64,000 nt of DNA, taken from Desulfobacter sp. GTDB taxonomy: Bacteria; Desulfobacterota; Desulfobacteria; Desulfobacterales; Desulfobacteraceae. Made by a program: the position numbers and the translations under genes. The stretch lies in the NCBI GenBank assembly GCA_028768545.1, contig CP054838.1, positions 632,727 through 696,726 of the forward strand. Direction: 5' to 3'. A model generated the notes under the pieces. It was not told where the DNA came from. It saw only the letters and a program-made list of their open reading frames with translations, and made no database searches. Each line of letters begins with the position of its first letter. The first letter of the stretch is position 1. Below, in pieces: positions 7,255-37,447 of the stretch.

Positions 7255-7968
7255 TTGAAATCCATACCCCTTTTTTCAGGATTGTCTTCTGATCAGCTTG
7301 AAAAAATAACCGGCCTGGCCAAAGAAAAGAACTTTTCCAAGGGAGAATTTATTTTCCAGGAAGGGGAAAAAGGAGACGGGTTTTATATTGTGGCCAAGGG
7401 CAAAATAAAGGTGTTCAAAATCTCCTTTGAAGGAAAGGAACAGATCCTCCATATTTACGGCCCCGGGCACACATTCGGCGAAGTGCCGGTATTTGAAGGT
7501 AAAAACTTTCCCGCCTCGTCAATGGCCATTGAACCGAGCCTTATTTTATTTCTGCCCAGAAATTTATTTGTCAAACTGATCACCGACTCCCCTGCCCTTG
7601 CCATGGGCATGCTGGCCGATCTTTCCAAGCGGCTGCGGGCCTTTACCGTCCAGATCGAAAATTTAAGCCTCAAAGAGGTACCGGCACGGCTTGCCGCCTA
7701 TATCATCACCCTGGCCCGGGAAACCGCTTCAGACTTGGGGCAGGACAACACAAGCCAAACCTTTGACGATACCACCGCCCTGCCCGGCAAAGTCACCCTG
7801 CCGATTTCCAAGGCCCAGCTGGCCAACCTCATCGGCACCACCCCGGAAACCATCTCCAGAATACTTAAAAAAATGGCCGATGCCGGCTTGATCATTGTTC
7901 AGAATAAAGACATCCTGATCCTGGATATGGACGGGTTGAGCGAACTCTCTGATCTGGGGCGGCTATAG
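7255..7968 (+). CDS. hcpR: Crp/Fnr-family regulator, HcpR-like
   Basis: cNMP-binding domain (GHTFGEVPVF) and C-terminal HTH (LANLIGTTPETISR); divergent from hcp; TTG start. Confidence 0.85.
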   Translation: MKSIPLFSGLSSDQLEKITGLAKEKNFSKGEFIFQEGEKGDGFYIVAKGKIKVFKISFEGKEQILHIYGPGHTFGEVPVFEGKNFPASSMAIEPSLILFLPRNLFVKLITDSPALAMGMLADLSKRLRAFTVQIENLSLKEVPARLAAYIITLARETASDLGQDNTSQTFDDTTALPGKVTLPISKAQLANLIGTTPETISRILKKMADAGLIIVQNKDILILDMDGLSELSDLGRL

Positions 7969-7970
7969 CA

Positions 7971-8064
7971 TTGATGAACCCGTAAAAAGTCCAACCGACG
8001 GCTAAGTAAAAATCTTCGCCTCCAAGGCATGGGGTTTGGTCAGGGGTGAAGGCATACATAATAG
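7971..8064. repeat. Possible half of a palindromic MITE-like repeat, truncated by IS6
   Basis: TTGATGAACCCGTAAAAAGTCC...GGGGTGAAGGCATACATAATAG resembles intergenic repeats I recall from Desulfobacterota. It ends exactly at the IS6 IR. No second copy in the window. Confidence 0.3.
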
Positions 8065-8904
8065 GGTTCTGTTGCAAAAAATATTTCCAGGACAAAGAGA
8101 TCGTTCAGGCGTAAAATTTACGCAGCATAAGAAAACAGATTTTCGACGAATTCTTTCTGCTTTAAAATTTCTCCCTTCCTAATATTTTTAACTTGTCCTT
8201 TTCTGATCATGTTCATAATTTCATAGCCTTTTAGCGTCCGCCAGGCAGAATGAAATGTCTTGAACCCCATACCAGCTCTGACAAGCTTTTTGATAAACCG
8301 GTGGTCTTGCTCAATAATATTGTTCAGATATTTATTCTGTCTTAGGATACAGTCCTTATTCAGAAGCTTTTTTTTCTTTCAAAGCCTTTACTGCCGGAGG
8401 ATATGCAGGATTTCCGTCAACACTCAGAACCCGAGGTCTGGAGCTATTGGAAGCTCGCAGCATCTTTTTAAAAAATCGTTTGGCAGATTCCATATTACGT
8501 CTGCTGCGAAGAAGAAAATCGATGGTATTTCCACGGGAATCGACCGCTCGGTAAAGATACTTCATTTTTTCCCCCGCACCTTGATATATGTTTCATCAAT
8601 ACGGTAAGAATCATTTGATTGCCGCAGATACTTCCTGCTTCGCTTTTCCATTTCAGGAGCATAGCGCTGAACCCATCGGTAAATGGTACTGTGATCCACA
8701 GACAAGCCCCGTTCTTGCATCATCTCTTCCAGATTCCTGTAACTCAGTTGATATCTCAGATACCAGCGAACATTCAACAGGATGATTTCTTTTTCATAAT
8801 GACGCCACTTGAAAGGGTTTTCATTTTTCATACTATCTCTCTGCAAACAAATTAGTGCCAAAACGGACTTGTATCAGACATTAATAATTTTTTGCAACAA
8901 AACC
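8065..8904 (-). mobile_element. IS6-family element, copy 1 (transposase frameshifted)
   Basis: IRs GGTTCTGTTGCAAAAA / TTTTTGCAACAAAACC. Same sequence as the other two copies except +2 T at about 8565-8570 and +1 T at about 8368-8375. No TSD. Confidence 0.95.
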
Positions 8905-24100: not shown

Positions 24101-25828
24101 TTAGAACTCCAGGGTTTTCTGGAGGTCTTCGTTGCTAAAATCCCAGGTGGTTTTATGGGGGGGGAACTCTTCTAAGAACATTTCAGGGAGCTGGTCATCC
24201 ACAGGGGTAAACCCGGCTCTTTTGTTGAATTCCTTTTCATTCCTGAGAACGGATTTCCCCAGCTCAAGAATATCCTCCGGGGTCAGTTCAAGTCCGAACT
24301 GGGCATTGATCATCTTGGCAATGGTGGGCAGCCCGTCTTCATTGTCCAGGACGGCAAAGGCCACAAAGAGGCAGAGGCCTGCCGCATCAATGGCCGCGGT
24401 GGCGATCTGGAGCCCCTGGGAAAGTTCCATGTTCCCCTCTTTTTTGGTGGGGTCAATGGATCCGCCAACGGCCAGGATATTGGCAGTCACCCCGTAGCCG
24501 GCAGTATGGTCGGCTCCCATGGGGGTGGTGGCATAGGTAACGCCCACGCCCTTGCAGGAGCGGGGATCATAGGCGGGCAGGGCCTGTTTTTTGACCACGG
24601 GCACCCGGTCAACGCCCAGGGCTTCTCCGGTAAAAAAGGCCCCGTTTCCGATGATTTTGCCTTCGGAGCTGTATTCACCCACCTTGGAAAGCAGAGCAAT
24701 GGCGGCAGGACCGTCACCCCAGGGGATCATTCCCCCTTCCATGGCAACGCCCAGGGCCACACCCATGTCGATGGTGTCCAGGCCGTAATCATCGCAGATG
24801 CGGTCCAGCATGGCAATTTCGTCCAGGTTCTTAATGGTGGTGTGGGCGCCGAATGCCCAGATGGTTTCATACTCAAACCCTGAGGTCAGGTAATTGTTGT
24901 CCTTGTCATGGTAGACATTGGAACATTTGATCACGCAACCCGGGTGACAGCCCTCTGTGGTGATGCCGCCCCTTTTTTCAATGTTTTCAGCCATGGTTTC
25001 CCCGGAAATCGCCTGGGCATCTTCAAACCGGCCGGACCTGAAATTCTGGGTGGGCATGGCCCCGGCTTCGTTGACGACATTGACCAAAACGGCAGTGCCC
25101 AAGGCTGGCAGGCCTTCCCCGGTTACCGGGTGGCTGCGGAGCATTTCCATCCACCGCTTGTTGGCGGCCTTAAAGGCTTCGGGGTCCTTGATCTCCAGGC
25201 GTTCAGCCCCTTTATCATTAACCACAATGGCCTTGATTTTTTTTGACCCCATGACAGCGCCCAAACCGCCCCGGCCATGAGCCCGTCCAGGTCTGCCGTT
25301 CATATCAGCCTGCTGGATGGAGGCGGCCTTGAGGCATTGTTCTCCTGCCTGGCCAATGGACAGAACCCCTCTGTTTTTCCCATATTGGGTCCAGAGGGAT
25401 TCCATGACCTCATAGTTGCCTTTTTTAACCAAATCATCGGCAGGCAGGATTTCTACCCCGTCATTGTTGATGACGATCATGGAGTATTGGTCATCCTGGG
25501 GTTTGTCTTCAAGAACAATGGCGGTAATGCCCAGCTTGGCCAGTTTCTGGGAGACCAGGCCGCCGGCATTGCTCTCTTTGATACCGCCGGTAAGGGGAGA
25601 CTTTGCGCCGGCGGAAAGCCGTCCTGAATTTGTTGCAGGAGAGCCTGACATGATGCCCGGAGCAAAGATCAGTTTGTTGTTTTTTCCTAAAGGGTGGCAG
25701 GTGGCAGGCACTTCGTCCAGAATCATTTTGGATGTCAGCGCCCTTCCCCCGAGACCTGCATAGGCCTCCGGGGTTTCTTCAAAGGTAAAGGTTTTTTCCT
25801 TTGTATTAATTCTCAATAACTTCCCCAT
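24101..25828 (-). CDS. aor: Tungsten-dependent aldehyde:ferredoxin oxidoreductase family protein
   Basis: KSPLTGGIKESNAGG, GRGGLGAVMGSKKIKAI, EYET, DDYGLDTI and YDPR motifs. Confidence 0.92.
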   Translation of the reverse strand: MGKLLRINTKEKTFTFEETPEAYAGLGGRALTSKMILDEVPATCHPLGKNNKLIFAPGIMSGSPATNSGRLSAGAKSPLTGGIKESNAGGLVSQKLAKLGITAIVLEDKPQDDQYSMIVINNDGVEILPADDLVKKGNYEVMESLWTQYGKNRGVLSIGQAGEQCLKAASIQQADMNGRPGRAHGRGGLGAVMGSKKIKAIVVNDKGAERLEIKDPEAFKAANKRWMEMLRSHPVTGEGLPALGTAVLVNVVNEAGAMPTQNFRSGRFEDAQAISGETMAENIEKRGGITTEGCHPGCVIKCSNVYHDKDNNYLTSGFEYETIWAFGAHTTIKNLDEIAMLDRICDDYGLDTIDMGVALGVAMEGGMIPWGDGPAAIALLSKVGEYSSEGKIIGNGAFFTGEALGVDRVPVVKKQALPAYDPRSCKGVGVTYATTPMGADHTAGYGVTANILAVGGSIDPTKKEGNMELSQGLQIATAAIDAAGLCLFVAFAVLDNEDGLPTIAKMINAQFGLELTPEDILELGKSVLRNEKEFNKRAGFTPVDDQLPEMFLEEFPPHKTTWDFSNEDLQKTLEF

Positions 25829-25872
25829 AATATATCCTCCTTGGCAAAAGTTGATTAAACTTAAGGGGTGGT

Positions 25873-27117
25873 TTAACGAAATTTTTTTGGCTTTTTTAAT
25901 GCCATTTTAACCAATTTCGGCTCAAATTTGGCTAATATCTCAACAAGACCCTTTTGCTGGGACATAACACGGCCGATATTTTTATATGCCATGGGAATCT
26001 CGTCAAGTCCAGCAGAAATCAATCTAACCTGATTTTTTTCAAGAATATTCTGTAAATCCTTAAATGTGAATTTTTTAAGGGCAGCGGTTCTGCTCATGAG
26101 ACGGCCGGCCCCGTGGGCTGCTGAGCTGATGGCCTCTTCATTGCCCTTGCCCCGGACAATAAAGCAGGGATCTGTCATGGTTCCGGGAATAATGCCCAAA
26201 AGACCCTTATGGGCCGGGATGGCCCCTTTGCGGTGGACAATGACATTTGTCGGGCCTATTTTTTCCTTAAAGGCGAAATTATGATGATTTTCCACGCTTG
26301 CCAGGGGACTTAGGCCCAGGGCCTTGAAAATGGAGTCGTGTATGATGTCATGGTTGGCCGCAGCATAGGCGCCCATAAGGGTCATGGCCTTAAAATAGGA
26401 TTGGCCCTCTTCTCTGTCCATGGAGAGCCAGGCCAGGTGTCTGAGGTGGGCGGGCAGTTCCGGATGAAGGGACTGGGCCAGGTTTGAATAATGTTTGGCA
26501 ATCTTTGCCCCTGTCCCACGGCTGCCCGAGTGGGTGAGCAGGCCGATGTAAGCGCCCGGCGTGAGTCCAAGCACAGGTTTGTCCAGGGTCAGGTTTCCGA
26601 ATTCGGCAAAGTGGTTGCCACCCCCGCTGGTGCCCAGTTGTTTCCAGGCCCTGTCCTTTAAAACAGCCACCTGGTGACAGAAAGTCCAGTCCCTGTCCAT
26701 GACCTTGTGGCTTTTGGGATGCTTAAAATATTGGCCCGTTCCAAACCGGGTATGGGTTTCCAGGACTTTTTTCAGCTCTTCTCTGAGAGGGGCGAACCCG
26801 TTAAAGGGGATCGGAAGAACAGAGAGCCTGACCCGGCAGGCAATATCCACGCCCATGGCATAGGGGATCACCGCATTGTCGGCCGCCAGGACCCCGCCGA
26901 TGGGCAGTCCGTACCCCTTGTGGGCATCAGGCATGAGGGCCCCTTTGACCGAAACGGGCAGGGACATGGCGTTTTCCATTTGTTCAACGGCTGCCGGATC
27001 CAGATCCTGTCCAAACATGATGTATTTGTTTTTTTTGACCATAATTTTGCAAGGGTTTGTTTTTGCCGGTTTCAAGGTTGTGCCCCATGGCTTGAGTCTA
27101 TCAAATACCGGCCTCAT
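25873..27117 (-). CDS. rtcB: RtcB-family RNA ligase
   Basis: MPDAHKGYGLPIGG, DIAC, GGGNHF, HSGSRG, NHHN, HRKGA and HGAGR motifs. True start may be downstream (MVKKNK). Confidence 0.92.
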   Translation of the reverse strand: MRPVFDRLKPWGTTLKPAKTNPCKIMVKKNKYIMFGQDLDPAAVEQMENAMSLPVSVKGALMPDAHKGYGLPIGGVLAADNAVIPYAMGVDIACRVRLSVLPIPFNGFAPLREELKKVLETHTRFGTGQYFKHPKSHKVMDRDWTFCHQVAVLKDRAWKQLGTSGGGNHFAEFGNLTLDKPVLGLTPGAYIGLLTHSGSRGTGAKIAKHYSNLAQSLHPELPAHLRHLAWLSMDREEGQSYFKAMTLMGAYAAANHDIIHDSIFKALGLSPLASVENHHNFAFKEKIGPTNVIVHRKGAIPAHKGLLGIIPGTMTDPCFIVRGKGNEEAISSAAHGAGRLMSRTAALKKFTFKDLQNILEKNQVRLISAGLDEIPMAYKNIGRVMSQQKGLVEILAKFEPKLVKMALKKPKKFR

Positions 27118-27339: not shown

Positions 27340-28263
27340 TTAAGGTTCAAGGCCAATCCCTTGGTCCGTAAAAAATTTTTCGCAGGCCTTGACCTGCGGG
27401 TCCGGCATCCATTCTCCCAGGGACTCCGCCTGGGTTGCAACAGGTGCCATGCCGATTTTTTTAATCTTTTCCTGCCACAGGGGGTGGTATGGCAGCAGCT
27501 GGGTTTTTTTTACATTCTCCTGAATATAAAATTCAGCAATGGCCTTTAGATTCTCCTGGGTGTCGGTGATATTGGGGATCAATGGGGTTCTGGGCAGGAT
27601 CTTTACCCCGCCGTCCAGATATTGCCGATGAAGATGTTTAAAATTTTTTAAAATAGTTGTGTTGGAAATGCCGCAATATTTTTTATGGGCATGGCTGTCC
27701 AGAATTTTGATGTCAAAATAGATCAAATCCACATGGGGGTAGACCAGATCCATAAAGGCCCTGTAATTAAACTGCCCGCAGGTCTCAATGAGGATGTGAA
27801 TCCCTTGTTCCTTTAGTCGTTTTGCAGCCCCGCCCAAATATTCCATCCAGAGAGTGGGTTCTCCCCCGGAAAAGGTTACCCCGCCCTTTGAGGTATCAAA
27901 AAACGGTTTGTCCCTGATCACCTGTTCCTCCATGCTGGAAACGTCCATGGGCCGGCCGATACGCTCCAGGGCCCCGGACGGGCAATGGTCCACACAGTCA
28001 AAACACAGGTTGCATACACTGCGGTCAATGAACAGGGGATTTTCTCTGGAAAGGGCCTGCCGGGTGCAGGTGTCGATGCAGGTGTTGCATCCCACACAGG
28101 TTTTTGATTCAAAGGCAATCTCAACCCCGGGGTTTTTGCTTTCCGGGTTATGGCACCAGACACAGTCCAGGGGACAGCCCTTAAGAAAGATAACGGTGCG
28201 GATACCCGGGCCGTCATCAAGGGAGTTGCCCTTTAGTTCAAGGATAAGTGGGGCGTTTTTCAT
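27340..28263 (-). CDS. Glycyl-radical enzyme activating protein (radical SAM with ferredoxin insert)
   Basis: DGPGIRTVIFLKGCPLDCVWCHNPES, two CxxCxxCxxxC motifs and GGVTFSGGEP. Confidence 0.95.
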   Translation of the reverse strand: MKNAPLILELKGNSLDDGPGIRTVIFLKGCPLDCVWCHNPESKNPGVEIAFESKTCVGCNTCIDTCTRQALSRENPLFIDRSVCNLCFDCVDHCPSGALERIGRPMDVSSMEEQVIRDKPFFDTSKGGVTFSGGEPTLWMEYLGGAAKRLKEQGIHILIETCGQFNYRAFMDLVYPHVDLIYFDIKILDSHAHKKYCGISNTTILKNFKHLHRQYLDGGVKILPRTPLIPNITDTQENLKAIAEFYIQENVKKTQLLPYHPLWQEKIKKIGMAPVATQAESLGEWMPDPQVKACEKFFTDQGIGLEP

Positions 28264-28444
28264 CTTCTGTATTCTGTCCTTTCTATCAATTTAAATGGCA
28301 TCTTTTTGTTCAGGTTCGCTCAATAGGTAGTTTACCCTGGAATACCCGCCAAAAGAGGTCGGTGATTTTCCAGGCCGGGCGTTAACCCCTTTGATCTGGA
28401 TATTCAGGTTAATTTCATCCCCATCTATGGCTGCCCCCTAAGGA

Positions 28445-28481
28445 TTGACAATTAATAGAACAGCGTTTCATTAATTGTCAA
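28445..28481. promoter_or_regulatory. Inverted repeat containing the activase promoter and putative TetR operator
   Basis: TTGACAATTAAT-N13-ATTAATTGTCAA with core AACAGCGTT at 28459-28467. Confidence 0.55.
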
Positions 28482-28542
28482 CCTTTTGTCATAAAAGCCT
28501 GATCAATTGAAATCAGGCGCTATAATAATCAGAAAACAATCG

Positions 28543-28571
28543 TTGACAGGTAGATTTAACGCTGTTAAATA
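28543..28571 (+). promoter_or_regulatory. tetR-GRE promoter with putative TetR operator
   Basis: TTGACA-17-TAAATA. The palindrome ATTTAAC-GCT-GTTAAAT carries the same core in reverse complement (AACGCTGTT). Confidence 0.55.
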
Positions 28572-28603
28572 AATGATAATAATTTTTCGATGACGGAGAG
28601 GTC

Positions 28604-29254
28604 ATGCCCAGAATCACCAGAAATCCGGAAGAGATAGAAAAGACCAAAAATAAAATTTTGGATGCTGCGCTTGCCATCCTCTTTGAAGAGGGATTTGACG
28701 ATTTGAGCATGCGCAAACTCGGTCGGAAGCTGGGTATGACAGCCCCCAATATCTACAATTATTATTCCAGCAAGGATGAGTTATACCTTGTCATCCAAAC
28801 CATCGGGTTTGAACGCATCTGCCAACGATTTGAAAAAATTACATCAATGCACACCCTTCCCATCCACCAGTTTTCCGCCCTGGTGGATGCCTACCTGGCA
28901 TTTGGCATGTCCAATCCTGATTATTACAGCATTATGTTCAGCAGGAATACACCCAAATACACCGATTATATCGGAACCAAGCTTGAACCCATTGCCTTTA
29001 AAGAAAAAAAAGCAGCACTTAAAGTGGCGGATCTCGTCACCTCAGTCATCCGACGCCTGGCCCGGGAAAACAGCCGGATTCAAGAACAGGATGCGGCCTA
29101 CCATACCATTCAAGTCTGGACCAGCCTCCATGGCATTGTATCCCTTTATTATACCCGGGTCCTTCAGGAGCTGGACGAGAATGTGGAAATGACCATCAAC
29201 AGGCTCAAATCAGATATGGTCCAATCCTTTGGTCCTGAAAAAACAGTTACTTAA
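28604..29254 (+). CDS. TetR/AcrR-family regulator with WHG-type C-terminus
   Basis: HTH LSMRKLGRKLGMTAPNIYNYYSSKDEL; WTSLHG motif. Confidence 0.93.
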   Translation: MPRITRNPEEIEKTKNKILDAALAILFEEGFDDLSMRKLGRKLGMTAPNIYNYYSSKDELYLVIQTIGFERICQRFEKITSMHTLPIHQFSALVDAYLAFGMSNPDYYSIMFSRNTPKYTDYIGTKLEPIAFKEKKAALKVADLVTSVIRRLARENSRIQEQDAAYHTIQVWTSLHGIVSLYYTRVLQELDENVEMTINRLKSDMVQSFGPEKTVT

Positions 29255-31793
29255 CACAGGGGTAAAAAAATGAACTTAAAAAACCTTGCCACCCTTTCGT
29301 TTTTAGCACCGCCCAAACCCGAGGTTAAGGATAAAACCATTTTAAACACCTTTACCCATGTTGCCTTGCGATTGATGGCCCTTCAGTTCAACCTGAGACC
29401 CGCCTTAAAAAACAAACTCAAGCACACCGCCATGATTGATTTGTCTCCAAACGGGAAAGAGAACACGACCGGCAAGGGCCGATTTGAGAGGCTGAACTTT
29501 ACCGTGGGCATTAAGACCCAAACCAACTCTGTGCGCCAATATATCCGGTTTCAGGAGGGCAAGGTCACGGTCCTTGGCAAAGCGCCTGAACAGGTAAATG
29601 TCACCCTTACGGCATCAGATGACAAGGCCTTAAAGCAGCTGGCCCTCACCCCCCCAAGCGACATGCTCAACCTTATCTTAAAAAACAGGATCACCCTTGA
29701 GGGGAACCTTGCCTATCTCCAGCTGTTTAACTATTGCATCTCCCTTGTCATGGGTCGGTTCCATGAAAAAATGGCCCGAAGAACCCTGAGAGCTGAAAAA
29801 AAAGTCAGGCAGAAAAATGCCCCTCCCAGCAACCCGGAGTTTGCAAAGGAACTGGCCCTTAGAAAAAATTACAGGATTCAAGGGACAAAAGGTCTGGATT
29901 CCGGGGTAAAATACCTGGATGATCCTTTTCTGCCTGAGTTGAGCCTGGACGATTTTCCCCGGCTGTCCACCTTTTTTAAAACCCACCTTGATACGGTACC
30001 CGAAGTTGATCCGGAGCGGATCAGTTTGCTCACCCAATGGTACCGGGCCAACGGCTGGGAAAAGGATGCACAGGGAAACCCGTGGTTCCCGGAGTATCGA
30101 AATGCCCTGGCCTTTAAGCATCTTATGACCTGTAAACAGCCCATTATAAGGGAAAACGATTTGATTGCCGGAACCACAGGATCCAAGGAGATCTCCACCC
30201 ATGTCTTTGGTGATGGCCAGGGCACCCTTTTCTGGGGGGAGCTTGATTCTGTCAACAAAAGAACCTTAAGTCCCTATACCTGCACCCGTAAAACAGCAGA
30301 TATTCTTCACAGAGAAATTTTCCCCTTTTGGGCGGACAAGACGTTTAGGGAACATGTGCGGCTGACCAAAGATACCCCCTTGTGCCAGAAAATCGATGAG
30401 CGGTGGGTGGCCTATTATGTGTGGAAATCCACGGGCATTTCCCATACCATTCCCAATTTTGAGCGCCTGTTGACAAGAGGGTGTGCCGGTATCAAAGAGG
30501 ATATAAGAAAAAGGTCCCAGGATGAGTTTTTATCCAAAGAAGAGACAGACACCTTAAAATCCATGACCCTTGTTCTGGAAGGGGTTGAGATCTATGCAGA
30601 CCATTTGGCCCGGGAGGCTGCAAAACGGGCCTCTGCCCAGCAAGACGCCCAGCGAAAAAAAGAGCTTGAGGCCCTGGTCCGGATCTGCAGCAGGGTGCCA
30701 AGGGAGCCTGCCACCAGCCTTGCAGAGGCGTTCAATGCCATCAATATCATCTGGACCGCCCTGCACAATGAAAATTCAGACACAGGGCTGTCTTTGGGCC
30801 GGCTTGATCAACTGCTCCAGCTCTATTTTGAAAGGGACATTGAAAAATGCAGTTCAGATGAAGAAAGACAGGCGTATATCAAATCTGCGGTGGAGCTTGC
30901 CGGCTGTTTTGTCATGCGCCTTACCGACCATGTGCCCATGCTTCCGGACATTGCCAATTATCTTTTTGGCGGGGCAACCTCCACCCAGGCCATCACCCTT
31001 GGCGGGGTGACAAAAGAGGGAGAGGACGGGGTCAACGATATGACCTATGTTTTTCTTAAAACCGCGGAAATGCTTGTGGTCAGGGATGCCAATTTTAACT
31101 GCCGATATAACAGCGACAAAAACAGTGATAATTACCTCAAGCGGCTGTGCGAGGTCAATATCATTGCCCAGGCCACCCCCATCATGCACAGTGACCAGGC
31201 CATGTTCAAGGCCTTGGGCCAGCATGGATATCCCCTGGAAGATATCCGGGACTGGGCAGCCACAGGATGTGTGGAGCCCACGATCCAGGGCAAACATAAC
31301 AGCCACACCGCCTCGATCCTGCTCAACATGGTGGCATCCATGGAAATGGCATTAAACAACGGGTTTCATCCCCTCATGGGGTTTTCTGCCGGGCCTGAAA
31401 CCGGGCAGATAGAAAAGGGTGATTTCAAACGTTTTCAGGATTTTTTTGATGCCTGGGAAATACAGCAGAAATTTATCATTGACCAGGCCTGCACCCTGAA
31501 CAATTACCTGGGAGAGGCCCATGGGAAGATTCGCCCCACCCCTCTTTTATCCGTACTTCAGGACGGCACCATTGAAAGCGCCAAAGACGTGCTCAAGGGC
31601 GGGGCAATCTACAATAGTTCAGGCACCTCAAATATCGGCCTGGCAGATGTCATTGACTCGCTTCTGGTGATCAAACAACTGGTTTTTGATGAGAAAAAAA
31701 TCAGCTTTCAAAAATTAAAACAAGCCATTGATGCTGATTTTGAGGGATTTGACTGGATTCATGCCATGGTGAGCAACAAGGTGCCCCAGTTCA

Positions 31794-33244
31794 GAGGGCG
31801 TTCAAAATTCTGTGTCAGTTGAATGAAAGCTGATATACTCAGCTAAATAAGGAGAACTGACATGACCGAAGAAAACACCGAATTTGATTTTCAAAAAGCC
31901 CTTAAAGGCATCCAGGAAGGTAAACCCTTCACAGGTAAGGGCGGCGTCCTTACATCATTAATCAAAAATCTTGCTGAAGCTGCTCTTGAAGGAGAGTTGG
32001 AGTCCCATCTCGGGCAGGAAGTTTCTGCCAACCGCCGTAATGGAAAAAGCAAAAAGACCATTAAATCCCTGGATGGTAAATTTGAGCTAAAAACCCCGCG
32101 TGACAGGGCCGGAACCTTCTCTCCACAGATCGTCAAAAAACATCAGACAACGCTCAGCGATGAAATTGAAAGAAAGATAATAGCCCTTTACGGCCTGGGC
32201 ATGAGTTATAATGATATGGCTTCCCATTTACAGGAAATCTATGGACTTGAGATTTCAAATGCCACTCTGAGCACCATTACCGATAAAATCATCCATACCG
32301 TCAAAGAATGGCAGGCCAGGCCGTTGGAAAATGTGTACCCAATCGTATGGCTTGATGCCATACATTATAAAGTACGAGAAAACGGAAAGGTCGGCAGCAA
32401 AGCCGTTTACACAATTCTTGGGGTGAATATCGAGGGCCGCAAAGAGGTTCTTGGGCTGTACATATCCGAGAATGAGGGTGCGAACTTCTGGCTGCAGGTG
32501 TTAACAGACCTTTCAAACCGAGGGGTAAAAGATATCCTGATTGCCTGTGTTGATGGTCTAAAAGGTTTTCCCGAGGCCATTGAGACCATATTCCCGGACA
32601 CAGAAGTTCAACTCTGCGTAGTCCACCAGATCCGAAATTCATTGAAATACGTTGGTTCCAAAAATAAAAAGGAATTTATGGCAGATCTAAAACGTGTTTA
32701 TAAAGCGGTCAATAAGGATCTGGCCGAAGAAGAACTGGATATCTTGGAAAATAAATGGAATGACAAATACCCGATTGTGATAAAATCCTGGCGGAACAAC
32801 TGGGAACGCCTCAGTCATTTCTTTAAATATCCAGAAGAGATTCGACGGATAATATACACCACAAATACCATTGAGGCTGTGCATCGACAGTTTCGAAAAC
32901 TGACCAAAACAAAGGGATCATTCCCGAACCAGGACAGCCTGTTAAAGCTGCTTTACATGGGGATCCAGAACGCCAGTAAAAAATGGACAATGCCGATTCA
33001 AAATTGGTCACTGACAATTTCCCAGTTGGCAATTTTCTTTGAAGGCCGGCTGGATAAAGAGCTGGGAATTTGATAGGGATTTATTTACAGATGGAAAAGA
33101 TGGTTCCAGGAACTCCACTCCAGCAAAAGTCAACTCCTCCGACGTGGCTGATTGAAGGCCCATTCTCGGACCTGACTTTTACTTCCGCTGGCGCTGAGGC
33201 AGATCCGGGAACCGAAACCGTGACACAGAATTCTGAACATTCCC
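31794..33244 (+). mobile_element. IS256-family element, copy 1 (intact transposase 31862-33073), inserted in the GRE gene
   Basis: Imperfect 24-bp IRs GAGGGCGTTCAAAATTCTGTGTCA / TGACACAGAATTCTGAACATTCCC. Flanks CCAGTTCA and CCAGTTCG match at 7 of 8 positions. Mutator-type DDE motifs. Confidence 0.95.
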
Positions 33245-33746
33245 CCAGTTCGGGTCAAGAGATCCCGGGGCACGGCAGATGGCCGACAGGGTGTTGCGGG
33301 TGGTTCACCAGGGATATCAATCCAACCCCCACTACAGGGGCGGGCATTATACGGCTGGATTCTGGTCCATGTCCCAGCATGTGGCCTATGGTACCCTTTC
33401 CGGGGCCCTGCCCTCCGGAAGACGGCGGGGCAAACCCTTTACCCCGGGCCTGACCCCCTATCCAAACGCCTCAAGGAGCCTGACAGACATATTGTCAGAT
33501 GTGGCCGCCTTGGATCCCAGGCTTCTGGATAATAATATGGCCTTTAACGTGAAATTTGCCCCCAAGGCCTCGGATAAACGGGAAAAGGCCGTAGACCAGA
33601 TGTTTTCCTATGTAAAATCCTATTTTCTCCAGGGAGGCATGCAGATCCAGTTTAATGTCATTACCTCAGAAACCCTTAAGGATGCGATGAACCATCCGGA
33701 AAATTATCGAAATTTAATGGTCAGGATATCAGGGTACAATGCTTAT

Positions 33747-35269
33747 GGGCGCATTCCCATTTTCCCGGTTATACCGCTGGCACTGGATTGTGCATGTTTG
33801 CCATCTGCTTCAGGCAGTTCCAACGCCCTGCTTTATAAAATGATCGCAGCATAATCATTTTTTCTGCATTCTCCCGATACCAAAAGATGCATGGACCTTT
33901 AAGACGTAAATTCACGACTCTCCGAATCGAACTTTCAATAGCACCGCTGCCAATAGGTAAGTTCAACGCTTTTACAGTTGAAAAATTAAGCCTCAGTTCA
34001 TTGCGCACAAAATAATCCCGTTCCGTCTTGATAGCCTTACTGTTTCTGCCTCTACAAAGCTTCTGGACGGCCTGTACCACCTCAATCGCCTTTCCCTTCA
34101 GCAGAAGACCTCGCTGCTTCGATACCCAGCGTTTGCGTTCCTTGGATGACCAGGTCTTCCTTAAGCCTGCTACTGTACCCAGATGCTCAACTGCATGGTA
34201 GAAATCGAGAAGTTCATACACACGCTCAGGAGCCAAACCCAATGCTTTTAGCAGTCCGGGGATTCGATTCCAAATCCAATGTGCCCCATCTGCAACAAAC
34301 AGTATTTTGTCTGAGTTCTGAATATGAAGGGAGTTCAAATAACCCTTTAACAAGTGGAATACACCATCCGGTCCATTGAAACAGCCATCAATAAATGGTG
34401 AAAAGCTTTTTTCTTGTTTTCTATGGGCGTCCACTACATAAATGATCAAAAGCTTGGGTTCTCGCCATGCCCCACGAAATCGGGTTCTATCCTTTTGGGT
34501 TTTTGGTCCCCTTTTCTTCTCTCTGAGCCGAGTGCGGCCACCATCAGTGCTGATAACGACTCGCCGCCCTTCAAGTAAATCTCCATCATTTAATGGGATT
34601 CGGCCCGCTTGTTGTTCGGCTCGAGCCCGCTCTGCGTACCGATAGGTCAGTTTACGGATGACCTTTATACCCAACGTCATCCCACGGTCACAAAGCACTT
34701 GACGGACTTCTTCAAAAGAACTTAATAAGGCTGACCAAGAACTCACCATAGAAGCCAAAGCAGGCGAGCAGCGATCATGGATTCCAAGAAGGATTAAGCC
34801 AGCGTATGCACCTTTATATCTTTTTCCTTTTCGGCGGTCACAGGACCTTCGATAGTATCGAACATGAATATCAACCGAACTATCTGTACAAAGCTGAATC
34901 CAAACGGTCTCAAGCCCTTCGCTTTTCATCCGTCCCGGCCAATTGGACATCAATTCTTTTTCTTGGTCGACCTGTTCAGAGGAATCTACTGAGGCCTGGA
35001 TCTTTTTTTTAAAAAAAAGGCGCTTATCCGATTTGTATACTCAAGGATTTCCTGCTCCATCTGTTCTAATTCGTTAGCGTTACGAACCAAGCGATTTGGA
35101 TCTTCTTCCAGTTCTTTGAGGCATGCAAGGACTTCATCAACAGTATTACAATCTTCAACTTTCTTCATTAGCACAATCCATTTATGTTCATTTCAGCGTA
35201 ACAGAGGATATCATTCTTTTTGCTCTAAAAGACAGGCCTTTTTAAAACCGGGAAAATGGGAATGCGCCC
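33747..35269 (-). mobile_element. ISKra4/ISLre2-like element inserted just after the GRE glycyl motif
   Basis: Perfect 24-bp IRs GGGCGCATTCCCATTTTCCCGGTT and 8-bp TSD ATGCTTAT. Transposase lies in two frames; ADGAHWIW and PIGSGAIES motifs. Confidence 0.9.
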
Positions 35270-35814
35270 ATGCTTATTTTGTTCAGCTGAACAAGGATAT
35301 ACAAATGGAATTAATTCAGCGGTCTGAATACAGCCATTAAAAAGGTATGCAATCCTCGATTGCAGGCGGAAAAGGTTCTTGGCCATAACGGGCCTTGTGT
35401 TTATGGTCATAGATTTGAGCAGAGTAATCCAGCATGAAGTATTAAAGATGCTCAAGAAAGCCGCAAGATTAATGACGTCATTATTGAAAATATGTTGTTT
35501 TGTCATCATTCAGGTTTTCTGGTCTATATCATCGACAGGATTTATCCTTTGACAAAATCGGTCTTGGCAACCTGGCACGGTAAATTTTCCGGGCTTGTTT
35601 TGGTCAGGAAAGGATGACGATTGGCACTGATTTTTTCAAATTAATTTTGGGAGGATCGTCTATGGATTGGTCAACAAAAAGCAAGTTTCTACCTGTGGAA
35701 ACCATCACCAGCAAAGGGCCGAAATCAGACAGCAGGTGAAAAACCGTCAGAGCCAGTAAAAATCCCGGGGCCAGGCCGCCCTAAAAAAAGGGGGGGGTAA
35801 AAAAAGCGTTAATA

Positions 35815-36636
35815 TTATAGACGGAGGGTCTGGCCCGTGGCAATCTTTTCAGCCCCCAATTCCCGGTGAAACCGGCACAAGGCGTCAAACCCCGTACAAT
35901 GCATAGGCAAAAGGCGGTCCACAGGATGGGTTTTGAAATACTCAAGGGTTTGATCGAGCTGATCACCGGGCGCCAAAAGATGGAACCCTCCCAGGACCAT
36001 GTGAATCCGGTCCTGGGAGGTCACGGCCTTGGCGCATTCGCAGATATTGCATATTCCGGCATGGGCACAGCCGGCAATGACCACGCATCCCTGGTCGGTT
36101 TTAACGGCCAGGGCCGTATCATCTTCAAGAAAATCCGCCCTTTGTTTTCCGTTCTCCATCTTAAAAAAAGAGGTGGACCTGGATTCAAAATCATTGGACC
36201 GGGGAATTTGGCCCAAAAAATAAACCGTGGGGGTCAGCTGTCGGGGCCGGTCAGACAAGACAAGATCAAAGGAGGTTTCGATCTGCTCTCTGGAAAGGCC
36301 GATGCCGTTGTATTCCCCTGTGGGCTTGTGCCGGTCGGTAAACACGGCCGGGTGGGCAATTAATTTTGTTTTTTTAATCCGGCCCGGCAGACAGGCAAGA
36401 CCGTCGGTATGATCCCAGTGGCCGTGACTTAAGGCAATCCAGTCCAGGGTGTTCAGGTCAAGATTCAAAAGGGCTGCATTGTCGAAAAAGATCGGTGAGG
36501 GGCCGGTATCAAAAAGGATATTCTGCTCAGCCCGGATAAACAGGGAAAGGCCGTGGGCCCCTTTGAAAATCCTATCCTTAAATCCAATCACGACCTGGTC
36601 CTCACACAATACACTGATCTCAAGTTTTGTTTTCAT
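35815..36636 (-). CDS. MBL-fold metallo-hydrolase (COG1237-like)
   Basis: HGLSL, FDTG, SHGHWDHTDG, GCAHAG, GGFHL and PMHCTG motifs. Confidence 0.9.
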   Translation of the reverse strand: MKTKLEISVLCEDQVVIGFKDRIFKGAHGLSLFIRAEQNILFDTGPSPIFFDNAALLNLDLNTLDWIALSHGHWDHTDGLACLPGRIKKTKLIAHPAVFTDRHKPTGEYNGIGLSREQIETSFDLVLSDRPRQLTPTVYFLGQIPRSNDFESRSTSFFKMENGKQRADFLEDDTALAVKTDQGCVVIAGCAHAGICNICECAKAVTSQDRIHMVLGGFHLLAPGDQLDQTLEYFKTHPVDRLLPMHCTGFDALCRFHRELGAEKIATGQTLRL

Positions 36637-36720: not shown

Positions 36721-37447
36721 TTACCCGATCCCGTTAAACGGGGCCATCACCCGGCCTAAAAATTGTTTTGTCCGGTCATGAACCGGTCGGGGAAAAAAGT
36801 CTTTGGCATTGTTTTTTTCCACAATCCGGCCCTGGTCCATAAAGGCAATCTCATCTGCGGCCCTGCGTGCAAACCCCATTTCATGGGTGACCACCACCAT
36901 GGTCATGCCGGACCGGGACAATCCTGCCATAACTTCAAGGACCTCTTTGATCATTTCCGGATCCAGGGCGGAGGTGGGTTCATCAAAAAGCATGACAGCA
37001 GGTTCCATGGCAAGCGCCCTTGCAATGGCGGCCCGAAAGCGTGGCCGGGTATTTGTTTGCCTGATCCGCAATTCCCACCTGGTCCAGCAGGGCCATCCCC
37101 TTTTTTTGGGCCTGGGCCTGGGACATCTTTTTAACCTTTACAGGGGCAAGGGTGATATTTTCCAATATGGTTTTGTGGGGATAGAGTTCAAAATGCTGGA
37201 ACACCATGCCGATGCGGGCACGCAAGGCATAGATATCCGTATCCCTGCCCTGGACTAAGACCTGGTCCACAAAAATTTCTCCGGACTTAAATTTTTCCAG
37301 GCCATCGATGCACCGGAGCAATGTGGATTTGCCGGATCCGCTTGGGCCGCAGATAACCAGGGTTTTACCGGCTTCAATGATGACAGAGACCTGGTCAAGG
37401 GCCTGGTAACTGCCGTATGACAGGCAAAGATTTTTGATTTCAATCAT
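36721..37447 (-). pseudogene. Polar amino acid ABC transporter ATPase (GlnQ-like), frameshifted at the signature motif
   Basis: Walker A GPSGSGKS is present. The frame breaks at LSG| and resumes as [10 protein letters not shown]...[11 protein letters not shown] in another frame. Confidence 0.88.

Follow-up and report, generated by a model that had tools for sequence, protein, structure and literature searches.

A TetR-linked glycyl radical enzyme with an SCP2-type N-terminal domain, a candidate for radical chemistry on amphiphiles, is disrupted by two insertion elements in Desulfobacter sp.

A 64,000-nucleotide stretch of the Desulfobacter sp. genome (assembly GCA_028768545.1, contig CP054838.1, positions 632,727 to 696,726, here C1:632727-696726 and termed the window), taken from a 4.96-Mb genome assembled as a single contig, contains a disrupted gene for a glycyl radical enzyme (GRE) that carries an N-terminal domain of the sterol carrier protein 2 (SCP2) type. 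The gene is transcribed together with a tetR regulator gene and divergently from an activase gene, forming a three-gene module of which one gene has recently been inactivated. The reconstructed protein has a glycyl radical motif with a Gly_radical domain, a PFL-like domain and an adjacent activase, the characteristics of the GRE superfamily. It belongs structurally to the eliminase/isomerase GREs and has a new fused domain and its own type of regulator. The module is thus a self-contained unit of sensor, enzyme and activase. On balance we favour, with moderate confidence, a function in radical 1,2-elimination, or a related C-O or C-N cleavage, at the hydroxylated end of an amphiphile to give an aldehyde or ketone.

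On the plus strand an 850-amino-acid (aa) open frame starts at position 29270 and runs out within an inserted element. When each insertion sequence (IS) element was excised together with one copy of its target-site duplication, the gene was joined as 29270-31792 + 33252-33746 + 35278-35340, giving 3081 nt in one frame that encodes 1026 aa followed by a stop codon. A preliminary description of this DNA had proposed a frame of about 1026 aa once two IS elements were removed, and its exact join reproduces this result. The features of the module are listed below in window coordinates.

27340-28263, minus strand: GRE-activating radical S-adenosylmethionine (radical-SAM) enzyme of 307 aa; intact, oriented away from tetR-GRE, and with a two-[4Fe-4S] ferredoxin insert
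28445-28481, no strand assigned: 37-bp palindrome TTGACAATTAATAGAAC-agc-GTTTCATTAATTGTCAA, unique in the 4.96-Mb genome
28481 to 28459, minus strand: TTGACA-N8-AACGCTGTT, -35 hexamer and predicted operator box facing the activase, within the 37-bp palindrome
28543-28566, plus strand: TTGACA-N9-AACGCTGTT, -35 hexamer and predicted box facing tetR-GRE, with the box in the promoter spacer
28604-29254, plus strand: TetR-family regulator, 216 aa, TetR_N and TetR_C_33 (WHG) domains; intact, ending 15 nt before the GRE start
29270-31792, plus strand: GRE fragment 1, residues 1-841, comprising SCP2, a long helical linker and the barrel with His392 and Cys667-Val-Glu669
29465-29728, plus strand: SCP2 domain, residues 66-153 of the spliced GRE
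31268-31270, plus strand: codon of Cys667, in GRE fragment 1
31794-33243, plus strand: IS256-family insertion, 1450 bp, transposase at 31862-33073, 9-bp duplication CCCCAGTTC
33252-33746, plus strand: GRE fragment 2, residues 842-1006, with the radical Gly1002 (codon 33732-33734)
33747-35269, minus strand: ISKra4-like insertion, 1523 bp, transposase at 33769-34953 (394 aa), 8-bp duplication ATGCTTAT
35278-35340, plus strand: GRE fragment 3, residues 1007-1026 and stop

In the spliced protein Pfam identified SCP2 (PF02036) at residues 66-153 (24.6 bits against a cut-off of 21.3), a PFL-like domain (PF02901) at residues 233-888 (E 4e-152) and Gly_radical (PF01228) at residues 904-1008 (E 4e-25). 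The cysteine loop WAATGCVEP (Cys667, Glu669), the glycine loop RISGYNAYF (Gly1002) and the three pocket segments ENSDTGLS, GGATSTQ and HNSHTASIL, all picked out in the preliminary description, were each located in it. The N-terminal fragment alone scored 27.8 bits against the same SCP2 cut-off, and the profile was matched by the N-termini of 12 of 32 diverse family members. Residues 1-232 were modelled with AlphaFold using 32 homologues (pLDDT 83); in the model an N-terminal helix is followed by a sheet of five strands, accompanied by two short helices, and then by a long helix (147-183) that runs into the core. When this model was compared with the PDB using Foldseek, the first match was UbiJ-SCP2 (6h6p; E 4e-6, TM-score 0.73), followed by the archaeal SCP2 protein AF1534, the SCP2-like domains of the alkylsulfatases SdsA1, Pisa1 and YjcS, and yeast, insect and human SCP2; the top 41 matches were all SCP2 proteins or SCP2-like domains. 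A search of PDB sequences with the N-terminal alignment profile gave only spurious matches to designed proteins, and fold comparison was used instead. Two independent methods, a Pfam score above cut-off and AlphaFold modelling with Foldseek, therefore agree on the SCP2-like N-terminus suspected earlier, and the N-terminal domain, as modelled, has the SCP2 fold.

An intact full-length orthologue, P0003 (82% identical, 1024 residues), was modelled with a pLDDT of 87.8 and a pTM of 0.90. A pTM of 0.90 over 1024 residues suggests that the modelled SCP2 domain packs against the GRE barrel rather than floating free, and the domain may deliver a hydrophobic substrate to that barrel. When the N-terminal module was searched against 1.8 billion representative proteins, the matches were mostly truncated fragments of the same GRE genes and no fusion to another enzyme class was found among the sequences inspected, so that on these comparisons the module appears essentially restricted to the SCP2-GRE family. 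A few distant stand-alone SCP2-like proteins were also found (158-173 aa, E approximately 1e-11; P0261 and P0267 are examples); these carry the GN.NY..F motif of the family and may be unfused relatives of the N-terminal module.

The separation of the catalytic core from characterised GREs was judged by identity, TM-scores and curated cut-offs. A search of PDB sequences with the spliced GRE returned glycerol dehydratase 1r8w first (E 6e-108), followed by the methyl-hydroxyproline dehydratases 8id1 and 8iof, CutC, propanediol dehydratase, Archaeoglobus fulgidus PFL2 and HypD, and sequence-search scores were 365 bits for glycerol dehydratase, 232 for MasD and 155 for TutD. The P0003 model matched GRE crystal structures with TM-scores of 0.88-0.94, in keeping with the ten-stranded barrel and central Cys loop of the superfamily, and structural searching with the full model gave the same ranking: glycerol dehydratase 1r8w at 30% identity (TM-score 0.93), propanediol dehydratases at 28-29%, CutC, HypD, HpyG and HpzG at 26-28%, C-S lyases and isomerases at 23-27%, and benzylsuccinate synthase at 18-20%. 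Identity to every solved GRE is thus at most 30%, compared with at least 51% inside the SCP2-GRE family. Among NCBIfam models covering the full-length GRE none reached its cut-off, with scores of 448 bits against 678 for TIGR01774 (the PFL2/glycerol dehydratase subfamily), 378.6 against 1050 for TIGR04394 (CutC), 398 against 1100 for the HypD equivalog, 355 and 345 against 1000 for the HpsG and HpfG equivalogs, and 241 against 1100 and 205 against 1150 for the indoleacetate and hydroxyphenylacetate decarboxylase equivalogs, respectively.

Alignment to 1r8w placed Cys433 at Cys667, Glu435 at Glu669 and His164 at His392, the last within the sequence GISH. His392 is invariant in the family, as is GCVEP in 65 aligned members, and His164 of glycerol dehydratase has been proposed to act as the acid, donating a proton to the departing hydroxyl (PMC13450708). 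Residues that hold glycerol in that enzyme are exchanged in the same alignment (Ser282 to Gly, Tyr336 to Ala, Tyr339 to Thr, Asp447 to Ala and Tyr640 to Trp), and the pocket should therefore be roomier and less polar; the position of the cation-binding Asp216 of CutC is taken by His392 itself. Since the Cys, Glu and His are kept while the pocket is replaced, the catalytic apparatus is of dehydratase type, and the core has a 1,2-eliminase/isomerase fold with a Cys-x-Glu loop and the acid histidine of glycerol dehydratase. With neither the defining pocket residues nor the curated cut-offs matched, the protein should not be classed as a glycerol or propanediol dehydratase, CutC, HypD or another named enzyme. 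These data accord with the preliminary placement of the protein in a separate GRE clade, given identities of at most 30%, scores below every full-length NCBIfam cut-off and exchanged pocket residues, and with the view that its pocket segments are unlike those of known eliminases. The accompanying statement that Cys-Val-Glu marks an eliminase-type GRE stood only in part: the motif is present, but the Cys-x-Glu loop is also common to GRE isomerases (PMC13450708) and so is no proof of an eliminase. The reaction may instead have an isomerase-type outcome, in which a bond is cleaved without net elimination.

A search of 5.8 billion proteins yielded 218 homologues, and the 120 listed were 51-100% identical and nearly all full length (976-1034 aa), from Desulfobacterota, Chloroflexota, Bacillota, Actinomycetota and Syntrophales; 203 alignment columns are at least 97% conserved across the family. 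When species-representative genomes were scanned with the N-terminal profile, 80 loci were recovered, with hosts including Desulfosudis oleivorans, Desulfobacula, Desulforapulum, the cultured Desulfoluna limicola ASN36 and Spirochaetota/Leptospirales, together with Anoxymicrobiaceae, Acidimicrobiales, Syntrophaceae and Syntrophomonadaceae. The full-length relatives number more than 200, at 51-87% identity, and judged on these sequences the family is large, conserved and without a match among characterised GREs. Within the taxonomic family to which the window belongs the module is present in 8 of 121 genomes, and in 3 of 22 of the genus; genomes of that taxonomic family with the module often carry it as two or three paralogues in tandem, with a separate TetR for each. 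Its patchy presence and tandem paralogy indicate an accessory, expandable module.

When all open reading frames (ORFs) within 10 kb of the SCP2-GRE gene were clustered, only two recurrent neighbours emerged, a TetR gene directly upstream on the same strand (37 of 77 loci) and an activase gene (32 loci). Across the 80 species-representative loci the operons took the forms TetR-GRE with or without a following activating enzyme (AE) gene, TetR-AE-GRE, AE-GRE and GRE-AE, other members being sporadic. No recurrent transporter, catabolic partner or small-subunit ORF was found in the operons of orthologue neighbourhoods, which lend no support to the acyl-CoA, sterol and bile acid substrates suggested in the preliminary description. 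Genes for acyl-CoA synthetase, Pat and deacetylase upstream of the GRE in 7-11 loci were considered as partners and rejected, as the arrangement looks like an acetyl-CoA synthetase regulatory cluster kept in synteny within a lineage. A rare glycerolipid hint is given by a 533-537-aa protein with a glycerolipid acyltransferase-like FPEGSRS motif, encoded 27 nt after the GRE gene in two loci (L092 6172-7785 and L093 6194-7795), with a third member of the cluster 27 nt from the GRE gene in another locus. In the orthologous locus L001 (16199-21708), an extra TetR_C_33 regulator lies beside three TetR-GRE paralogues, divergent from an operon encoding a 263-aa protein without Pfam matches, a split transketolase, a DUF362 protein and a short-chain dehydrogenase/reductase.

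Both partner genes in the window are intact. The activase has a CX3CX2C motif and two CX2CX2CX3C motifs, matches Pfam Radical_SAM and Fer4, scores 272.8 bits against TIGR02494 (cut-off 174) and is 74.5% identical to the activase of L001; its motifs, score and minus-strand position bear out the divergent two-ferredoxin activase described earlier. TetR_N and TetR_C_33 were likewise found in the upstream regulator, on the same strand as the GRE gene and separated from it by 15 nt, as expected from its earlier designation as a WHG-type TetR. Upstream of the TetR genes of many distant loci a consensus palindrome was observed, AACAnTGTTAA-n-TTAACAnTGTT. Searching 12 whole genomes for this predicted operator with up to two mismatches gave one or two sites per genome in 11 of the 12, while a reversed pattern used as control matched in one genome only. 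Fourteen of the 15 sites adjoin a clear TetR orthologue, plus an SCP2-GRE gene wherever the fetched piece was long enough; the one remaining site is close to the end of a contig and is accompanied only by a weak TetR match of 56 aa. Across the 12 genomes the predicted operator is therefore confined to SCP2-GRE modules, and the regulon would be the module itself.

In the window the divergent intergenic region is 340 bp long and contains two TTGACA-N8/9-AACGCTGTT elements, where none would be expected in the window by chance. The AACGCTGTT box of the element at 28543-28566 corresponds to the family AACAnTGTT unit with one mismatch, and conservation of both operator blocks extends to the orthologous loci L014, L015 and L001. 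The exact 37-bp palindrome of the window was absent from other loci, the element in common being the shorter AACAnTGTT box. Since in both elements the box lies downstream of a -35-like TTGACA, a bound repressor would be expected to block both promoters. The regulator thus resembles TetR repressors in having an N-terminal helix-turn-helix, a ligand domain and a predicted palindromic operator at its own promoter. The TetR control proposed earlier is supported by a conserved predicted operator at TetR promoters and by the presence of the box at both divergent promoters of the window. The predicted operator linking TetR to the module is new here.

The GRE cannot be made in this genome. The transposase of the first element (31862-33073) matches Pfam Transposase_mut (E 5.5e-104) and the NCBIfam IS256 model (420 bits), and the ends of that element are terminal inverted repeats. 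The transposase of the second (33769-34953, minus strand) scores 142 bits against the ISKra4 NCBIfam model, below its cut-off, and the element has 29-nt inverted repeats that are 97% complementary. The ISKra4-like element was inserted four codons past the radical Gly1002 and the IS256-family element before it, so that no product holds the barrel and the glycyl radical domain together. A tblastn search of the whole genome found no second SCP2-GRE copy, only short relics, and with the two interruptions this upholds the preliminary verdict that the copy is dead. The spliced GRE retains 201 of the 203 positions conserved at 97% or more in the family, indicating that inactivation was recent; it deviates at residue 518, within the LDQ..QPYF motif, where Leu stands in place of Pro, and at residue 844, where Arg stands in place of Gly. 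The latter lies just after the first IS junction, and the pair are possibly the earliest signs of decay. Genome-wide blastn gave approximately 180 matches to the IS256-family element and approximately 68 to the ISKra4-like element, and the best 40 listed for each were all full length (99.8-100% and 99.4-100% identity, respectively). Such near-identical copies across the genome mark the disruption of the GRE gene as one casualty of an IS burst. The module is therefore dispensable in this organism and is being lost from an IS-swamped genome. Two SCP2-GRE relics on opposite strands near position 399,000 (C1:398700-399077; 38 aa at 66-68% and 41 aa at 49% identity) suggest the older loss of a paralogue. 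An unrelated second GRE gene (C1:1744799-1748075, approximately 28% identical) is a pseudogene with internal stops and is abutted by a copy of the ISKra4-like element at 1743280-1744802.

Beyond the activase, the minus strand of the window (24101-27117) encodes a tungsten-type aldehyde:ferredoxin oxidoreductase (AOR, 575 aa, 24101-25828) and an RtcB RNA ligase. On the other side of the module a metallo-beta-lactamase gene (35815-36636) was considered as a partner and rejected, as it bears only a faint resemblance (E approximately 4e-4) to the metallo-beta-lactamase gene that follows the GRE gene in five loci of one lineage. An amino-acid-type ABC transporter ATPase is encoded on the minus strand at 36721-37447 as two overlapping ORFs (154 aa with Walker A, and 116 aa); it is probably a frameshift pseudogene broken near the LSGG signature.

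Taken together with the enlarged pocket and the Cys/Glu/His triad, the SCP2 fold makes a 1,2-eliminase acting on an amphiphile the best reading of these data. Many family hosts fall in groups known for the degradation of fatty acids or hydrocarbons, among them Desulfosudis oleivorans, Syntrophaceae, Syntrophomonadaceae, Desulfatibacillum and Desulfatiferula, and this was counted in favour of the reading. The lack of a dedicated transporter or downstream enzyme, and duplication with private sensors, fit a substrate that partitions into membranes and a product that feeds general metabolism. Beyond the fold, motifs and predicted operator, the mechanism is inferred. TetR would leave its operator upon binding an amphiphilic ligand and the activase would install the glycyl radical. 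SCP2 would hold the hydrophobic part of the substrate and offer its polar end to the barrel, where the Cys thiyl radical would take a hydrogen from the carbinol carbon. Glu would deprotonate the hydroxyl, His would protonate the vicinal oxygen (possibly nitrogen) leaving group, and the carbonyl product, an aldehyde or ketone, would enter general metabolism without dedicated partner enzymes. Several points weigh against this scheme. The gene neighbourhoods indicate no particular lipid, and because isomerases also have a Cys-x-Glu loop, net elimination does not necessarily follow. SCP2 folds can serve in membrane association or, as in UbiJ, protein scaffolding instead of substrate delivery. The window operator consists of single 9-bp boxes, unlike the cross-phylum 23-bp palindrome.

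Scaffolding leads to the alternative in which the SCP2-like domain is a membrane anchor, complex scaffold or channel gate and the substrate a small polar diol, amino alcohol or sugar derivative. The best structural match, UbiJ-SCP2, is itself the scaffold of a biosynthetic complex, polar residues remain in the pocket (His392, Thr505, Ser571, His679 and Thr680), and gating by accessory elements is known in GREs, as with the small subunits of benzylsuccinate and methylalkylsuccinate synthases (PMC13450708). Large pocket residues of glycerol dehydratase have, however, become Gly, Ala and Thr, and a soluble substrate is without a recurrent transporter or catabolic partner in the neighbourhoods. 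TetR sensors usually bind lipophilic ligands, and in the alkylsulfatases SdsA1 and Pisa1 the fused SCP2-like domain is used for hydrophobic substrates, as is generally known and as titles of PDB entries indicate. On these grounds we regard this alternative as unlikely.

The hosts themselves raise the question of hydrocarbons. The family occurs in the alkane and alkene degraders Desulfosudis oleivorans, Desulfatibacillum and Desulfatiferula olefinivorans, and the related A. fulgidus PFL2 (2f3o), among the top matches, has been proposed as an alkylsuccinate synthase (PMC13450708); the enzyme could then perform non-eliminase radical chemistry on a hydrocarbon or fatty acid, either fumarate addition to alkanes or alkenes or decarboxylation, with SCP2 in place of the small subunits. 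This is improbable, given that benzylsuccinate synthase stands at 18-20% identity and a TM-score of approximately 0.8 against 26-30% and approximately 0.92 for eliminases, that MasD and TutD score well below glycerol dehydratase, and that the Cys-x-Glu loop and dehydratase histidine are retained. Genes for beta, gamma or delta subunits or for processing of succinate derivatives are not recurrent near the GRE gene, and the family also occurs in metagenome-assembled genomes (MAGs) of Spirochaetota and Actinomycetota, groups not known to us as hydrocarbon degraders. Less probable still is a pathway in which the GRE forms an aldehyde and the AOR two genes away (24101-25828) oxidises it. The AOR gene adjoins those for RtcB and the activase in the window, but RtcB separates it from the activase, the operator was not found near it, and its homologue lies within 10 kb of a family gene in none of 93 fetched loci, for which reason AOR was rejected as a conserved partner.

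Returning to the amphiphile eliminase, a bolder version is that SCP2-GREs are the first GREs devoted to lipids or amphiphiles, in which the carrier pulls a membrane-soluble alcohol from the bilayer and a radical C-O (or C-N) lyase receives the head group of that alcohol. The substrate might be a long-chain 1,2-diol, a surfactant of the alkoxyethanol type, an amino-alcohol lipid, or an ether-linked head group such as an alkylglycerol, and the TetR of each paralogue would tune it to a different lipid. We advance this version tentatively, as a possibility somewhat short of probable. If true, anaerobes would cleave without oxygen bonds that aerobes break via oxygenases, and this would matter for how lipids and surfactants are turned over in sediments, digesters and the subsurface and for what becomes of ether-lipid biomarkers. 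More generally, the combination across phyla of an eliminase barrel, a lipid-carrier fold and a ligand-sensing repressor points to unstudied anaerobic radical chemistry on lipid-like molecules. To our knowledge the substrates of every characterised GRE eliminase or isomerase are small and soluble in water, and we know of no dehydratase-branch GRE for radical bond cleavage on a greasy molecule. Targeted full-text literature searches on GREs with SCP2, TetR or lipid substrates returned nothing on the SCP2-GRE family. Neither this family, SCP2 nor a lipid substrate among eliminases and isomerases is mentioned in a June 2026 review of the GRE superfamily that lists every characterised class (PMC13450708). 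The family is approachable in the laboratory through Desulfoluna limicola ASN36, a cultured and fully sequenced host with an intact copy at locus L073 9959-12928 and its activase at approximately 7636-8538, and the conserved predicted operator offers a handle for DNA-binding assays in which TetR ligands could be screened.

Among known systems the nearest in structure are the glycerol dehydratase of Clostridium butyricum (1r8w/1r9d) and propanediol dehydratases (Roseburia inulinivorans 5i2g; 9rco), which have the same barrel fold (TM-score 0.92-0.93), the Cys-x-Glu loop, the histidine equivalent to His164, the glycyl radical motif and a two-ferredoxin activase. They differ in sequence (28-30% identity) and in lacking the 230-residue N-terminal module of SCP2 plus linker, and the microcompartment or diol-pathway context is absent here, where the regulator is a TetR. 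The choline TMA-lyase CutC, the hydroxyproline-type dehydratases HypD, HpyG (8id1) and HpzG (8iof), the C-S lyases IslA, IseG and HpsG, and the isomerases PflD, YbiW and HplG belong to the same structural class. Cys-x-Glu GREs abstract hydrogen beside a hydroxyl, after which a vicinal group is lost or migrates (PMC13450708). Towards CutC, HypD, HpyG, HpzG, the C-S lyases and the isomerases identity is 23-28% and equivalog scores are approximately one third of the cut-offs; the CutC, HypD-type, C-S lyase and isomerase GREs have neither an SCP2 domain nor a lipophilic substrate. The only GREs known with hydrophobic substrates, the benzylsuccinate and 1-methylalkylsuccinate synthases, have extra protein elements at the channel entrance (PMC13450708). 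These enzymes add substrate to fumarate and have separate small subunits, whereas no such subunits are encoded here and identity is 18-20%.

For the N-terminal domain the closest parallels lie outside the GREs. In ubiquinone biosynthesis the SCP2 proteins UbiJ and UbiT keep a very hydrophobic intermediate available to soluble enzymes, and UbiJ is the best fold match; they are, however, separate proteins and not fusions, are only 16-18% identical, and have quinone biosynthesis as their setting, whereas nothing in the neighbourhood here ties the locus to quinone genes. The alkylsulfatases SdsA1, Pisa1 and YjcS and the MFE-2/SCPx proteins do, as here, have a catalytic domain fused to an SCP2-type domain, which in those enzymes recruits long-chain amphiphiles. 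Their catalytic domains are unrelated to that of the GRE (metallo-beta-lactamase, dehydrogenase/hydratase and thiolase), and their SCP2 domain is C-terminal, whereas in the SCP2-GREs it is N-terminal and followed by a 40-residue helix.

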